A stretch of 64,000 bases of DNA from an uncultured Gemmatimonadales bacterium. GTDB lineage: Bacteria; Gemmatimonadota; Gemmatimonadetes; Gemmatimonadales; Gemmatimonadaceae. This document shows, piece by piece, positions 50,226-64,000 of this stretch (the stretch's first letter is position 1; each line of letters starts with the position of its first letter). The notes under the pieces are model-generated. The model was not told the origin of the DNA, did no database searches, and saw nothing but the letters and a program-made list of their open reading frames with translations. The stretch covers positions 4,672,001 through 4,736,000 of the forward strand of contig OY969695.1 of assembly GCA_963701965.1 (NCBI GenBank). Reading direction: 5' to 3'. The translations under genes were made by a program, and so were the position numbers.

Positions 50226-51790
50226 ATGCGAAGATGGCCAACCGTGGGCGCGGCGAGCGTCCTTGCTACTTTCGCGCCCTGCGTTGGCCTGAGTCAGTCG
50301 GGCCCGGCCGAACGCGTGCCCACGCCGCCGCGGTCTGTCGTGTCACCGCAGAACGCGGCGGCCCGTCCCGTACCAATCGCCGACCTCTTTTTCTCGCACC
50401 GCGTGCTGAGCCCGGCGTGGTCGCCCGATGGCAAGCAGATCGTGTTCACCACGAACGTCACCGGGCGCTACAACTTGTAGAAGATGGATCGTGACGGTGG
50501 GGCGTTGGTCCAGCTGCTGCAGTCCGATGATGGTCAGGAGAACGCGGTGTGGTCGCCCGACGGCAAGTGGATCGTGTATACGCAGGACGCCGGCGGGAAC
50601 GAGATCAACGACGTGTACGCGATCCCGAGCGGCGGAGGGGCGGCCGTCAATCTCACGCACAGTCCGGACACATCCGAGGACAATCCGCTCTTTTCACCCG
50701 ATGGCCAACGGTTGGTGATCGCCGTCAAGGCCAAGACCGCGTCCGACGCCGAAGTGGCGATTCTCGACTGGAAGACGCGGGCGAAACGTATCCTGACGCA
50801 CGAGCAGTCCGCCGACCATCTCTGGCAGCCATTCGCGTGGAGCAAGGATGGCCGCCACATCTATGCCAACCGCGTCAAGGAGAGCTACACCGACTCCGAC
50901 GTCTACGAGATCAATGCCGAGACCGGCCAAACGCGCGATCTCACGCCCCATACCGGCGACGTCCAGTACATGGGCACTTCGGTGTCGAGCGACGGTCGGG
51001 TGCTGCTCAATTCGACCGCGAAGGGTGGATATCAGAACGTCGCCATCCTGGATGCCGCCACACGCCGTCTGGAGTGGATGACCGACACACAGTGGGAAGC
51101 GTCGGCTGCCGACTTCGCGCCGGATGGTTCCCGCTTCGCCTACGTGCTGAATCAGGATGGCCGGAGCACACTGTACGTACGCGACACGGGCACTCGCGCA
51201 TCGAGAAAGCTGGCTTTTCCCGATGGCATTACCCGCGCCGCGGGATTGCCCAGCGCGTTCTCTCCGGACGGCACACACCTGCTCGTGTACCACGAGGACG
51301 CCCGCCGCCCGTCCGATCTCTGGACGTACGACCTGCGGACCAACGCCCCGAAGCAACTCTCGCATTCGGCGCTCGCCAGCCTCAATCCGGGCGGCTTACC
51401 CTCCACGCAGCTGGTGCACTACAAGAGCTTCGACGGGACGCTCATCAGCGCCTACGTGTGGATGCCGTTCAATCTCCAGCGCGACGCCTCGTACCCCGCG
51501 TTGGTGCTCCCGCACGGCGGTCCGACCAGCCAGACGATCGATGACTTCAATACGGTGGCCGTGGCCCTGGCGTCGCGAGGCTATATCTGCATCTCGCCCA
51601 ACGTGCGCGGCTCGACCGGATATGGCTTGGCGTTCCAGAAGGCCAACTACAAGGATTTGGGTGGTGGCGATCTCCAGGACGAGATCTTCGCGACCCGATT
51701 TCTGGTGGAGACCGGAGACGCCGACCCCAAGCGCTGCAGCGGATCGTCGATTGGTTCGACAAGTACCTGAAGCCCGGGACTGACGCTACC
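50226..51790 (+). pseudogene. S9 family peptidase with nonsense codon and catalytic-domain deletion
   Basis: WSPDG repeats, in-frame TAG at 50478-50480, HGGP, NVRGSTGYG. ADPKR jumps to QRIVDWFDKYLK and no GxSYGG is present. Confidence 0.85.
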
Positions 51791-55780: not shown

Positions 55781-55813
55781 CCGGCGCCCCTGGCCAGCTC
55801 TACTTTATAGGCC

Positions 55814-56677
55814 GTGGTGTTCCAGGACGGACTGCCCGACGCCTATACGGTAGAGCGCGAGCTGGGGCGCGGGGGCATGGCCACCGTCTACCTGGTGCGC
55901 GACGCGAAGCACCAACGTCTCGTGGCGCTCAAGGTCTTGAACGCCGATCTCGCCGCCTCCCTCGGCCCCCAGCGGTTCCGGCGCGAGATCGCCACCGCCG
56001 CCCGGCTCCAGCATCCGCACATCCTCGGCGTCTACGACTCGGGCGAGACGCCGACGGGCCAGCTCTGGTTCACGATGCCGTACGTCGAAGGCGAGTCGCG
56101 GCGCGCGGCGTACGACATGGCGCTGCGGTACGCGCCCTCCTCGGCCGAGGCGAACCAAGGGTTGACGGGCGCCGAGGCGGGAATGGGCGATTGGCCGGAC
56201 GCGTTGGAGCACGCCAAGCGCGTTCGACAACGACAGGGGCACGTGGTCGGTCATCCGTTCGGAAGCTTCGATCATCTGCGCGGCAACACCGCGCTCGCCC
56301 GGGCCCATGCCGACACGGCGATCGCGATCCTATGACGCGCAACCCGCGTCGCCCGATGATTTTCAACGCCCGTTGTTCCGCGAGCCTGATGTTGGCGCGG
56401 CTCGGACAACGGCAGGCCGGGCCGAGAGCTTGGGCGCGCACGGTCTGGCGTTGGCCCAGGCCACCGGCGACCGCATTCGGGATCATGGCGTATGCCGAGC
56501 ATCTCGCTGGAAACGCGTTTGTACGTCGGGACCGGCGACCACGCGAAGGCGCTCGACGTCCTCGATTCGCTGCTCGCTCAGCCGTATCTCATCTCGCCGT
56601 CGTGGCTGCGGGTCGATCCGACGTGGGCGCCACTCGCCAAGGAAACCCGCTTCCGGCGCATGATCGCGGCCCGCTAG
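55814..56677 (+). pseudogene. Ser/Thr protein kinase with large internal deletion and frameshifts
   Basis: ELGRGGMATVY, VALKVL, HPHI, MPYVEGES, then TPR-like tail ending WLRVDPTWAPL..RF. No HRD or DFG motif. Confidence 0.88.
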
Positions 56678-59294: not shown

Positions 59295-61826
59295 ATGATC
59301 GATTCGCGTTTGTCCTTGCTCGTGCTGGCGCTGGGCGCGTGCACGCCGGTGGCACCGGCCCCGGCGACCACACCGAGCCCCGTCCGTCTCGCCGGCGACA
59401 GTGCCAAGGGTGACTCCGCCGGCGCCGCCAAACCGTACTCGAAGGTCATCACGGCCAAGGCGGTGACCCAGCGCGGCCTCGTGATCAGCCATCGGATCGG
59501 GGAGAAATTGTACTTCGAGGTGCCGACCCGCGTCCTGGGCGCCGACCTCTTGCTGGTGGGAAGCCTGGCCCGCGCCAGCGCCGGGCAGGAGAGGCAATAC
59601 GGCGGCGACTGGCTCAACCGGCGGGTTATCCGCTGGGAGGAGCGGGACCGTCGCGTGCTCCTGCGCAGCGTGTCGTACGAGGTAGTCGCCGATACGTCGC
59701 TGCCGATCGCCCGGGCGGTCGCGCAATCGGAATACGGCGCGGTGCTCGCCTCCTTTCCCATTGAAACGTTCGGTCCGGACAGCGCCCCGGTCATCGACGT
59801 GACCCGACTCTATACGACCGGCATCCCGGAGATGGCGGCGTTCAAGGAGGGGCTCGATGAGAAGCGCTCGTTCATCGAGCGCGTGTCGGCGTTCCCCGAC
59901 AACGTGGAGGTCGAGGCGACGCAGACGGCCGACGGCAAGGACCACGGTCCGGCGTCGAGCGTGTTGGCGCACTGGAGCATGGTGCGCCTTCCGGTCGTCC
60001 CCATGACCGCGAGGCGCGCCGATCCCCGGGTCGGTTTCTTTCTGACCGAGCAGATCGACTACGGGACGACCGAGCCGCGTGCGGCGAAGCGCCAGTACAT
60101 CGGCCGCTGGCGCCTCACCAAGAAGGATCCCGCGGCGGCGGTATCGGAGCCGGTCGCGCCCATTGTCTACTACATCGATCCCACGACGCCGACCCAGTGG
60201 GTGCCCTGGATCAAGAAAGGCATCGAGGACTGGCAGCCGGTATTCGAGGCCGCGGGTTTCTCCCATGCCATCGTGGCGAAGGACGCGCCCGTAGGAGATC
60301 CGTCATGGTCGCCCGACAATGTCCGGCACACGGTGATCCGCTGGTTGCCGTCGACGACGGAAAACGCGTACGGCCCGCAGATCGTCGATCCGCGCACGGG
60401 CGAGGTGCTCAATGGCTCCGTCCGGGTCTATCACAACGTCCTCAATCTCGTCCGCGACTGGTACATCACGCAGGTCGGTGTGCTCGACCCCAGAGTCAAG
60501 ACGTTGCCACTGCCCGACTCGCTGATGGGCCGCTTGCTGGAATACGTGATTGCGCACGAGGTGGGGCACACGCTGGGGCTCCGGCACAACATGCAGGCCA
60601 GCAGCGAGTACCCGGCCGACAGCGTGCGCAGTCGGACGTGGATCCACCGGATGGGTTTCTGCGCCTCGGTCATGGACTACTGTCGATTCGACTATGTCGC
60701 CCAACCCGAGGACTCGATTCCGGTCGGCGATCTCATCCCCCGCATCGCGCCGTACGACTACTTCGCGATCCACTGGGGATATGCGCCGATCGACGTGGAG
60801 ACTTCCACCGCGCCGGGATCGGGCGGGGCGGGCGCCCGGCCGCTCATGCACGTGCGCGCGACTGATGCCGAACGACCCGTGCTCGACGCGTGGGCGCGGG
60901 CGCAGGACAGCGTGCCGTGGTTCCGCTATGAAGGGGACGAGGGTAACGCCGGCCCCGATCCGGGTGTCCAGAGCGAAGCCGTTGGTGATGCCGATGCGGT
61001 GAAATCCACGACCGCGGGCTTCGCCAATATCGCGCGCACCGTCCCGCGGCTCATGACGCTGGCGGTGCGGCCGGGTGAGCCGGACGACGATCTCAAGGAT
61101 CTGTTCGATCGCCTGATCGGGCAGTGGCAGCTCGAAGTCCGTCAGGTGGTCAAGGTCGTCGGCGGGGAATACGGCCGGGAGAAATCCGGCAGCCAAACCG
61201 GACCCCGGTTCACGCCGGTGCCCGCGGACCGGCAGCGCGCGGCCGTGCGCTTTCTGGTGACGCATGCCTTCGCCACGCCCACGTATTTCCTGGACCCGGC
61301 GCTCCTGGCGCGACTCGGCGCCGATGTGGGCGATAGCGCGCTGGCGCGCGTCAAGCAGGCGCAGAGCGGTGTCGTGCAGTCTCTGCTCCGTGCCGACCGT
61401 CTCGAACGGCTCGCCGACGAGCGGGCGATGGTCGGCCGCGGCGGTGATGCCTACGATCCGGCGGAGCTCATGTCGGACGTGCGCGTCGCGCTCTGGTCGG
61501 AACTCACCGGGGGAAGCGTCAAGATCGACGCGTTCCGCCGGAGTCTGCAGCGGGCGCACTTGGTGGCCCTCGATGCCTTGGTGAACCCGATCAACCCCAC
61601 GAGCGGGAAGCCGGACGACAAGTCGCCCGTTCCCACCGTCGATCGGACCGGCGCGCCGCGCGCCGGTGAAGGCGATGCACGGGCGCTGGCGCGCAGTGAG
61701 TTGGCGGCGATCCGCGACGCCGCGCGTCGCGCGCTGCCGCGCGCGGGCGATGCCGTCACCCGGGCACATCTCACCGAGACGATCGCCGAGGTCACGCGAT
61801 CGCTCGAGCCCGCGCCAGCGGCTTGA
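59295..61826 (+). CDS. Zinc-dependent metalloprotease lipoprotein (EcxA/DUF4953-DUF5117-like)
   Basis: Lipobox LGAC, ADPRVGFF, PIVYYIDP, AHEVGHTLGLRHN, SVMDY. Confidence 0.92.
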   Translation: MIDSRLSLLVLALGACTPVAPAPATTPSPVRLAGDSAKGDSAGAAKPYSKVITAKAVTQRGLVISHRIGEKLYFEVPTRVLGADLLLVGSLARASAGQERQYGGDWLNRRVIRWEERDRRVLLRSVSYEVVADTSLPIARAVAQSEYGAVLASFPIETFGPDSAPVIDVTRLYTTGIPEMAAFKEGLDEKRSFIERVSAFPDNVEVEATQTADGKDHGPASSVLAHWSMVRLPVVPMTARRADPRVGFFLTEQIDYGTTEPRAAKRQYIGRWRLTKKDPAAAVSEPVAPIVYYIDPTTPTQWVPWIKKGIEDWQPVFEAAGFSHAIVAKDAPVGDPSWSPDNVRHTVIRWLPSTTENAYGPQIVDPRTGEVLNGSVRVYHNVLNLVRDWYITQVGVLDPRVKTLPLPDSLMGRLLEYVIAHEVGHTLGLRHNMQASSEYPADSVRSRTWIHRMGFCASVMDYCRFDYVAQPEDSIPVGDLIPRIAPYDYFAIHWGYAPIDVETSTAPGSGGAGARPLMHVRATDAERPVLDAWARAQDSVPWFRYEGDEGNAGPDPGVQSEAVGDADAVKSTTAGFANIARTVPRLMTLAVRPGEPDDDLKDLFDRLIGQWQLEVRQVVKVVGGEYGREKSGSQTGPRFTPVPADRQRAAVRFLVTHAFATPTYFLDPALLARLGADVGDSALARVKQAQSGVVQSLLRADRLERLADERAMVGRGGDAYDPAELMSDVRVALWSELTGGSVKIDAFRRSLQRAHLVALDALVNPINPTSGKPDDKSPVPTVDRTGAPRAGEGDARALARSELAAIRDAARRALPRAGDAVTRAHLTETIAEVTRSLEPAPAA

Positions 61827-61851
61827 CATGCTCATCTCAGTGCTATAGGAT
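61823..61851 (+). promoter_or_regulatory. Sigma70-like promoter of the SusC leader
   Basis: TTGACA-N17-TAGGAT. Confidence 0.75.
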
Positions 61852-61862
61852 TGCCGCTCACC

Positions 61863-61958
61863 ATGACGCCATCCATGTCCATGTGTTGTCGCGCCCTCTG
61901 TATCCGCTCCATCGGGAGTGGGAACAGTGGCTGCGCGTCATCCGGTGGACTTGGATGA
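61863..61958 (+). CDS. Putative Cys/Met-rich leader peptide MTPSMSMCCRALCIRSIGSGNSGCASSGGLG
   Basis: First ATG after the promoter; 4 Cys and 3 Met; overlaps attenuator segments 1 and 2. Confidence 0.6.
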   Translation: MTPSMSMCCRALCIRSIGSGNSGCASSGGLG

Positions 61959-62009
61959 TCGCGTAACATGCGATAGGTCGCGATAGGCCGCGACGCGTCT
62001 CGCGCCACT

Positions 62010-62041
62010 GAGCCCGCTCTCTCCGGAGAGCGGGCTCTTTT
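62010..62041 (+). terminator. Intrinsic terminator in the 5' leader of the SusC-like gene
   Basis: gagcccgctctc-tccg-gagagcgggctc followed by tttt. Confidence 0.9.
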
Positions 62042-62081
62042 GCGTTTATCCCTCATTGCCTTGACTGGAGAATCTGGTTCA

Positions 62082-64000
62082 ATGCCCAGAGTCGTTCGTG
62101 TAGTCATCATCGTTGCGCTCATGCTGGTTGGCCACGAGGCGCGCGCCCAGCCATCGACCCGACGCATCGTGGGACGCGTCGTCCAGGGCGGCGATCGTCC
62201 CGTCGTGTCGGCGATCATCGCCATCGGCGATCGCACCGCGGGCATCGCGGTCGACGGTGCGGGGCGATTCACGATCCACGCGCCGAATGGCCCAGTGGTG
62301 TTGACCGTGCGCGCCATCGGATTCACACCGCGCACGGTGCCCGTCGCCGCTGGCGATTCGGTTCTCACGGTGGAGCTCACCACGCAGCCCTACACACTGG
62401 GCGAGATCGTGGTCTCGGGGAAGACATCGTCCCTCTCCCGCTCGACGGCGACGACGGCCGGATCGACGGTCAGCGCCGAGGAGATCGACCGGGCACCCGC
62501 CCAGTCACTGGAGCAGGCGCTCCAAGGCAAGGTCCTCGGCGCCACGATCAGCATGAACAGCGGAGCCCCGGGCGGCGGCGGACAGATTCAGATCCGGGGC
62601 GCGACGTCGATCCTGGGCAATGGGCAGCCGCTCGTGGTGGTCGATGGGACGATCATCTCGAACAATGCCTTCTCCTCCGGCGCCAACGGCGTGACCAAGG
62701 CGTCGCGGGGCATCGGGACGAACGGGACCAACGAGGACAACCCCGACGGCCGATTGGCGGACATCAATCCCGCCGAGATCGAGAGCATCGAGATCGTCAA
62801 GGATGCGGCGGCGACCGCGATCTACGGTTCGCGGGCTTCCAACGGCGTCGTCGTGATCCGCACGAAACGGGGGAGCGCGGGAAAGACCACGATCAACCTG
62901 AGTCAGCGGGTCGGAGTCAACACGCCACTCAAGGAACTGGGCTATCGGACGTTCGACAGCGTGGCGCAGGTCATCGCGATCCCGTTCGGCGAGGCCAACA
63001 ATGCCGCGGCCATCGCCTATCTCGACCAACGCTTCCCGCATGGAGTGATCCCCCGCTCGGCCAACGTCGATCTCGAGAAATCGTTCTTCGACAACCGCGA
63101 TCCGAGCTACGCCACCATCGTGAGCGCGAGCGGCGGGACCAACCAGACGAAATGGTACGCCTCGGGGACCAACCGCCTGGAAGCCGGTATCGCGCCCAAC
63201 ACGGACGCGCGTCTGCAATCGGCGCGGCTCAATCTCGACCAGGCATTCGGCAATCAGATGGAACGCGTCCTTGAGCGTCGACGTGCTGCGGAACACCAAC
63301 AACCGGGGCCTGGCCAACAACGACAACACGTTCACGAGTCCCGTGTACGCATTCGCCTATACGCCGGCGGTGTTCGACCTGCGGCAACGCGCCGCCGACG
63401 GGAGCTACATCCAGAATCCGATCTTTGGTGGCGGATCGGCGGCGTCGAATCCGTTCCAGACGTACCAGTATCTCAAGCTCACCGAGGACGTGACGCGAGG
63501 GCTGGGCAGCGCGACGTTGAGCTATACGGCGGTCGATGCCGGGGCAAACCGGGTGGTGCTGGCGGCGCTCGGCGGATTCGACCGCTACACGCAGTCCGGC
63601 GTGCTCGTGTCACCTGGCTTCCTGCAGTATGAAGGCGCGGACGGATTTTTCGGACGCAATGAGCAGACGACGGTCGAGGGACTGAATCAGAATGTTCAGG
63701 GCACCGTCACCTGGACGGTGACCCCCGTGCGCGCCCTCACGTTCGCCACCGCGCTGGGCGCCAGTGCCGAAAAGCAGTCGACGAACCAGTACGCGCTGCT
63801 GGGGAAGGGAACGCTGCCCGGCACCGCGACCGCCGCCCAGGGCAATCTCACCGACTTTCAGGCGATCACGGCTTTCGACGACCAGGCGCTCTTCGCCAGC
63901 GAACAGGTCACCGCGCTGGGCGAGCGGCTGGTGCTCAACGGCGGTGTCCGCGCCGATCGATCGAGCGCCAATGGCGACCCTGGACGCTACTACGTGTATC
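62082..64000 (+). CDS. SusC/RagA family TonB-dependent receptor (partial; frameshift near 63257)
   Basis: GGAG RBS, signal peptide, ALQGKV.G, IQIRG, PLVVVDG, DINPAEIESIEIVKDAAATAIYGSRASNGVVVIRTKRG. Continues in a shifted frame (WNASLSVDVL..) to the window end. Confidence 0.92.

Follow-up and report, generated by a model that had tools for sequence, protein, structure and literature searches.

A candidate cysteine-sensing leader-peptide attenuator in front of a SusC/SusD importer in Gemmatimonadaceae

Introduction

The classical leader-peptide transcription attenuators are those of trpL, hisL, pheL and thrL in E. coli. The SusC/RagA-SusD/RagB importers, of which BT1762-63, BT2263-64 and RagAB of the Bacteroidota have been structurally solved, are usually controlled by sigma/anti-sigma factors, two-component systems or riboswitches, and not by a leader peptide. 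The locus analysed here appears to join the two: a short upstream open reading frame (uORF) rich in cysteine (Cys) codons and an intrinsic terminator stand in front of a susC gene within a 64,000-nucleotide (nt) stretch from an uncultured Gemmatimonadales bacterium of the family Gemmatimonadaceae (assembly GCA_963701965.1, contig OY969695.1, positions 4,672,001 to 4,736,000), hereafter the window.

Leader-peptide attenuation as a mechanism is described in PMC4007540 and 10.1101/834739. Leaders linked to cysteine have been found in several bacteria, among them the mycobacterial polycysteine leaderless small open reading frames of the 'Cys ribulon', which respond to cysteine (Canestrari et al., 10.1101/834739; PMC13236596). 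The dissected case, Ms5788A, acts on translation by hiding the ribosome-binding site, that study leaving the level of control at the other loci undetermined (10.1101/834739). The predicted actinobacterial Cys leaders are reported to lack conserved terminator hairpins (PMC1262725), and a predicted cysS leader of 10 residues precedes a tRNA synthetase in Deinococcus deserti (PMC4007540). The actinobacterial precedent invoked in the original prediction for this locus thus exists but is looser than implied, the cysteine cases found in print acting on translation or lacking intrinsic terminators. No attenuator described on a SusC/RagA gene was known to the author of that prediction. The literature search turned up no case of a Cys leader coupled to an intrinsic terminator, nor any Cys leader from Gemmatimonadota or ahead of susC, where subscription papers and bioRxiv supplements could still hold one; the available part of PMC2965389 does not mention TonB.

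Like the classical attenuators, the window leader has a short uORF with clustered regulatory codons, 1:2, 2:3 and 3:4 helices and an intrinsic terminator, its last regulatory codon precedes the antiterminator strand by about 12-15 nt, and the enrichment in the codons of one amino acid is conserved in orthologues. Unlike them, it uses Cys codons, together with methionine (Met), has no Shine-Dalgarno sequence and fronts a SusC/SusD importer, not a biosynthetic operon. With the mycobacterial sequences it shares a short Cys-Cys uORF (adjacent codons Cys8 and Cys9) that is predicted to begin at the 5′ end or close to it, the occurrence of several such loci per genome and the presence of downstream sulfur genes. 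It differs from Ms5788A in phylum, target gene and predicted output, which here is a strong, conserved intrinsic terminator in place of a hidden ribosome-binding site. The actinobacterial and D. deserti leaders are likewise short reading frames with Cys codons and lie upstream of cysteine-related genes, whereas neither fronts an importer. The importer itself resembles Bacteroidota SusC/SusD (TIGR04056, PF07980) in domain content, gene order and SusD fold, and differs from them in its 11-17% structural identity to solved SusDs and in having a leader peptide as its proposed control.

If the reading presented below is correct, trp-style terminator attenuation would extend to cysteine and to outer-membrane uptake, and the Cys-sensing leader would mark one clade as a sulfur-starvation importer among the SusC/SusD pairs, which are one of the largest gene families in Gemmatimonadota (22 susC loci in this genome). 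The surprise is moderate, since the attenuation mechanism itself is textbook.

Architecture of the leader

The leader most probably functions as a trp-style transcription attenuator that senses Cys-tRNA and gates read-through into susC-susD, a reading to which a probability of roughly 0.8 is assigned. Its parts, namely a promoter-like site, the uORF, complementary segments and a terminator, are present and conserved. All lie on the forward strand. The promoter candidate (61823-61851) is of sigma-70 type, with TTGACA at 61823-61828, a 17-nt spacer and TAGGAT at 61846-61851, and the intrinsic terminator that separates the uORF from the first gene (62010-62041) has a 12-bp stem followed by UUUU and is kept in the orthologues; both had been predicted at these positions. 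Within 61300-62300 the promoter is the only promoter-like site (shuffle mean 0.1), and 62010-62037 plus TTTT the only terminator-like one (shuffle mean 0.2). The orthologous leaders at loci L051 and L133 have TTGACA-17-TATCAT upstream. A GGAG at 62067-62070 is the likely ribosome-binding site of susC.

The uORF, predicted as 31 codons with a Cys-rich N-terminal part, is found as such at 61863-61958, with Met at positions 1, 5 and 7 and Cys at positions 8, 9, 13 and 24. It is probably translated from a near-leaderless AUG, because its first ATG lies 11 nt past the −10 box and a Shine-Dalgarno sequence is absent. Judged by the predicted promoters, the start codon is a GTG at 37 nt from the −10 box in L051 and L133 and an ATG at 7 nt in the first leader of genome G123. 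From Met-Cys-Cys through the stop codon, the window uORF aligns with those of L051 and L133 without gaps. The predicted sensing codons (61875-61901) are Met5, Met7, Cys8 and Cys9 (61884-61889) and Cys13 (61899-61901). The span 61884-61901 had been described as Cys codons, and Cys does occur there, but at three of the six positions. Cys8, Cys9 and Cys13 are all encoded by UGU, which makes up 15 of the 21 pre-switch Cys codons in six susC leaders versus 19% in the genes of this genome, and the TG of Cys13 is invariant in 10/10 aligned leaders. Across fifteen leaders, 61 Cys and 20 Met are found among 222 pre-switch codons, against a background of 0.72% Cys and 1.95% Met in this genome's genes, where the codons were counted over hand-drawn ranges, each closing with the last pre-switch Cys, and the fifteen leaders are related. 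A His- and Trp-rich frame at 61823-61966 was set aside, because its listed start falls within the −35 box and because the residue that relatives conserve is Cys.

Conservation with orthologous susC genes

Conservation of the leader was assessed in 198 distinct susC upstream regions, each offering 230 nt or more of sequence. The rule used detects a reading frame 10-46 codons long that contains Cys-Cys and is followed, 30-130 nt after its end, by a strong hairpin whose tail is rich in T. A Cys-Cys uORF followed by a terminator precedes 6/6 orthologous susC loci and 0/192 other susC loci; the 55.5% identity line between the two groups was set after seeing the data, two of the six orthologues (L052 and G328) are near-identical, and the control pool includes one locus from an unpublished genome, G012. 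The grouping is given independently by a tree of 47 chosen SusC rows, as the eight orthologous rows form one clade in it with a support of 100/100. A seventh locus, in G602, belongs to another family and was found through its SusD and fetched afterwards; it too has a Met-Cys-Cys leader with a terminator. The expectation that orthologous leaders would retain the uORF and its Cys codons is therefore borne out at all six orthologous loci and in G602. Ahead of the orthologous susC in G123 there are two tandem Cys leader-terminator units (L134:4140-4540; G123:C1, about 3722140-3722540), neither with an internal Met. The G410 contig ends within the leader, and only the 3′ part of the leader and the terminator are visible.

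The susC cassette itself is patchily distributed: it occurs in 5/401 genomes of the family at 60% identity or above, in 1/87 genomes of one genus and 2/26 of another, and it is absent from the five other genomes of the window's genus. This patchiness is likely due to transfer, although loss may also account for it. A direct DNA search with the leader in 61 relatives gave chance matches only, and a loose Met-Cys-Cys pattern run over 61 genomes was dropped as too unspecific. Four low-share DNA sequencing runs contain scattered near-identical pieces, one of which spans 61800-61947 with two differences.

Competing helices and the proposed switch

The mutually exclusive helices and the small hairpins of the original prediction were all recovered where it had placed them. 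Helix 1:2 (61898-61910 with 61915-61927) has 12 of 13 positions paired, helix 2:3 (61914-61931 with 62004-62021) has 16 of 18, including two G-U pairs, and both small hairpins enclosed by the antiterminator (61934-61963 and 61977-61994) fold as described. The leader has a folding energy of −110.8 kcal/mol (z = −7.7), and none of 200 shuffles is as stable. In both the minimum-energy and the centroid fold the core 61898-61927 belongs to a longer anti-antiterminator hairpin, 61865-61963, so the 1:2 pairing stands as proposed but the hairpin extends further; the free leader RNA forms this single long hairpin, which buries the entire uORF, plus the terminator. Masking the Cys codons switches the predicted fold to the antiterminator, as anticipated. 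In such constrained folds its 5′ strand (61914-61931) comprises GGGAGUGG (61914-61921) and a second segment, and its 3′ strand (62004-62021) includes the entire 5′ arm of the terminator (62010-62021).

With the ribosome modelled as an unpaired block reaching 12 nt past the A-site codon, stalls at Cys8, Cys9 and Cys13 let the antiterminator capture 10 of the 12 nt of the terminator arm, and the capture declines to 7, 4 and 1 nt for stalls at codons 14, 15 and 16. Cys13 is thus the last codon at which a stalled ribosome is predicted to leave the antiterminator whole. In L051 and L133 the drop falls at the homologous codon, and it is robust to footprints of 9-15 nt. In all seven leaders modelled, a ribosome placed on the regulatory codons is predicted to favour an antiterminator whose formation precludes that of the terminator. 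Over 10 leaders its outer helix is 96% paired, and the overall antiterminator pairing is equalled by 2/500 shuffles.

In the proposed mechanism, transcription would start near 61858-61860 and the uORF would be translated from the nearly leaderless AUG. When cysteine is plentiful, the ribosome would pass codon 14 and cover GGGAGUGG, and the terminator would form. When cysteine is scarce, a ribosome stalled at Cys8, Cys9 or Cys13 would mask the 5′ side of the 1:2 hairpin, and the freed GGGAGUGG would capture the 5′ arm of the terminator while the 3′ arm is still to be transcribed, resulting in read-through into susC-susD. Met5 and Met7 lie in the same run of codons and probably contribute an added response to Met shortage.

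Related leaders in front of sulfur genes

Similar leaders are found outside susC. The detection rule matches 10/30 cysH loci and, falsely, 3/30 PALP-family loci, none of the latter with a convincing leader. The susC leader of L133 is similar to three leaders at cysH loci (cysC-cysH-sat operons; E 1.7e-9 to 3.4e-5 in 1.8 Mb), and the L276 leader fronts cysC-cysH-sat. A covariance model, R1, built from three susC and three cys leaders, has matches in 21/151 genomes at E 0.01. Below E 1e-5, all seven matches to sequences that the model was not trained on have a Cys-rich uORF, and the genes behind them encode CysI, a NIR/SIR reductase, CysH (twice), a Porin_O_P protein, an SDF symporter and the SusC of G602. 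Nine weaker matches (E 5e-5 to 4e-3) were read and comprise three hisG attenuators, three plain terminators, one Cys/Met leader and two non-leaders; because of this mixture, only matches below E 1e-5 were counted. The Porin_O_P protein (L306, G161:C62) and the SDF-family symporter (L333, G328:C2), which may resemble the cystine carrier TcyP, are candidate sulfur uptake proteins, since the Cys leader family fronts both.

In the window's genome, G000, a scan of 237 intergenic terminators returned five Cys-rich uORFs, namely that of the window, a sulfurtransferase leader, a NIR/SIR reductase leader and two that lack a T-tract and seem spurious. The sulfurtransferase leader (L234, G000:C1:3577918-3578060) has 27 codons with Cys, a terminator and an ATG 5 nt past the −10 box, and is followed by genes for a two-domain rhodanese/sulfurtransferase and an aminotransferase. 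The reductase leader (L235, G000:C1:1107010-1106860, minus strand) combines Cys codons and a terminator before a lone NIR/SIR-family reductase gene whose start region seems to be frame-changed. No cysH was found in this genome, and it is missing in 5/5 cassette carriers, but it is present in merely 43/151 genomes of the order and 12/69 of the family, and being so rare throughout both, its absence from the carriers is uninformative.

The SusC/SusD importer and its cargo

The susC/RagA-type TonB-dependent transporter gene starts at 62082 and continues beyond the end of the window at 64000, with Pfam Plug and CarboxypepD_reg domains. The check for a downstream susD that had been proposed gave one after susC, outside the window (G000:C1:4737214-4738602), encoding a lipoprotein assigned by both SusD_RagB (PF07980) and a fold search. 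The SusC of L051 passes TIGR04056 (460.6 bits versus a cut-off of 368.25), and together with the SusD the importer matches a SusC/RagA-SusD/RagB pair; the window copy of susC is frame-changed. The clade SusC proteins (ten rows, partly duplicates) contain 0-0.36% Met+Cys, whereas 201 others have a median of 1.07%, five of them being equally low. The 31 clade SusD proteins have a median of no Met, and all have two Cys after the lipobox, compared with a median of two Met and mostly four Cys in non-clade SusDs (48 aligned of the 88 full-length matches listed); the sequences compared are related and not independent, and significance is accordingly overstated. Proteins that cells produce when starved of sulfur typically contain little of it. 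A second susC paralogue of this genome (G000:C1:1967261) has 0.31% Met+Cys and no Cys leader by the Cys-Cys detection rule.

The match between the regulatory amino acid and downstream function is direct for the cysH, cysC and sulfite reductase members, and for susC-susD it is indirect, through the low Met+Cys content. The importer, nearly devoid of Met and Cys, likely takes up an organic sulfur source. The fold search retrieves glycan and peptide SusDs alike, and with just 11-17% identity to any solved SusD the cargo cannot be read off the structure; the genes downstream of the orthologous susC-susD differ between loci. A broader scenario, for which the odds appear about even, is that a Cys terminator switch was recruited from sulfate-assimilation operons of the Gemmatimonadota to a sulfur-stripped SusC/SusD cassette that moves between genera, making it a dedicated organic-sulfur importer whose cargo class would be readable from the leader peptide.

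Points against the attenuator and alternative explanations

Several observations weigh against a Cys-tRNA-sensing attenuator. The uORF lacks a Shine-Dalgarno sequence, and the distance from the −10 box to its ATG is 11 nt, compared with 5-7 nt in the genome's four other leaders. The antiterminator capture energy clearly exceeds that of shuffled sequences in two of seven leaders (0 and 1 of 200 shuffles as good); the window's is matched by 31/200 and those of the remaining leaders by 11, 15, 22 and 87, so that the case for the window antiterminator rests on conservation, the capture energy alone not being beyond chance. Truncated RNAs of L051, L133 and L238 form the antiterminator without any ribosome, and the inner antiterminator helix is just 62% paired in the 10 leaders. 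Covariation is thin, with three pairs showing two-sided changes in 10 leaders, and in six leaders there is one such pair, a value reached by 64/500 shuffles and thus not above them. R1 missed the susC leaders of G010 and G123, and for this reason a single origin is not shown for all leaders. The window's own susC copy carries a frame change. Finally, the terminator prevails at equilibrium despite a stalled ribosome (P 0.9996), from which it follows that the switch would have to be kinetic rather than an equilibrium one; classical attenuators likewise switch kinetically.

The same switch might count Met-tRNA as much as Cys-tRNA and report total sulfur amino-acid supply, which is possible but unlikely. 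The Met share of the pre-switch codons noted above, the Met downstream of the first Cys in 9/15 leaders, Met5 and Met7 of the window uORF, the depletion of the importer in both residues and an O-acetylhomoserine sulfhydrylase gene behind one weaker R1 match (L310, G588:C3) all speak for it. However, internal Met is absent from 5/15 leaders, including both susC leaders of G123, and the two Met codons of the window uORF come before any Cys and could themselves serve as starts. Of the Cys/Met signal originally envisaged, Cys is present throughout and internal Met is not, and by this comparison Cys is the constant predicted signal across the leaders. A rather improbable alternative is that an intact leader has nothing functional to drive in this strain, susC being a pseudogene. 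The reading frame does change between 63248 and 63256, but 5/22 susC loci of this single-contig assembly change frame, which is why the change is probably an assembly (indel) error. Moreover, both parts of the gene share 63-64% identity with L051 and are free of stops where they match, susD is whole, and in G410, G328, G123 and L051 the orthologous frame stays open for about 1090 codons. Among the pieces listed from the four sequencing runs, none bridges the frame change.

In CutF- and CruR-type leaders a nascent Cys-rich peptide arrests the ribosome, and a peptide sensing a metal or thiol-reactive compound would be an explanation here as well, in keeping with the ability of clustered Cys to bind metals and with the frequent import of metals by TonB receptors. 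It is nevertheless quite improbable: only the Cys and RNA-helix codons are conserved while spacing and flanks vary, the Cys codons lie within about 6-20 codons of the start without a signal peptide or conserved arrest motif, and the leader family fronts sulfate-assimilation genes. Least probable is that the hairpin merely terminates the preceding metalloprotease gene or a small RNA, with an incidental uORF. No other terminator is found between that gene and the leader, and in an Rfam scan of the window the best hit is the Xoo2 small RNA. At 31.2 bits (E 6e-4) it remains below the cut-off of 45, and the identity was rejected; in the available text of PMC3039613, X. oryzae pathovars are the only bacteria from which Xoo2 is reported. 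In the window no Rfam family attains its cut-off, none of the riboswitch, T-box and small RNA families reaches the gathering cut-off at five orthologous loci, and the riboswitch match that had been named as a possible refutation did not materialise. The leader travels with susC and not with the protease, none of the 192 other susC loci has it, and the conservation pattern largely refutes a plain terminator.

Neighbouring genes and other leaders

The gene upstream (59295-61826) encodes a Met-zincin lipoprotein (DUF4953/5117/5118), and its stop codon falls inside the −35 box of the leader promoter. With no separate terminator in between, the metalloprotease transcript may end at the attenuator terminator. 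The original prediction had drawn attention to this neighbour. It does adjoin the susC leader, but the genes upstream of the orthologous leaders in L051, G328, G123 and G602 are unrelated to it, and a gene that the orthologues do not keep as a neighbour does not belong to the attenuator unit. Further upstream, a truncated Ser/Thr kinase-like remnant (55805-56335) and a split peptidase-like gene (50226-51770) were noted by eye and are possibly assembly errors.

Leaders for other amino acids occur elsewhere in the genome, with a His-rich one before a hisG-like gene (L236, G000:C1:2566143) and a Tyr/Phe/Trp one before a DAHP-synthase-like gene (L237, G000:C1:2720478), both genes being named by eye and the ATG in both leaders lying 7 nt past the −10 box. 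Further hisG leaders are found at L309, L320 and L323.

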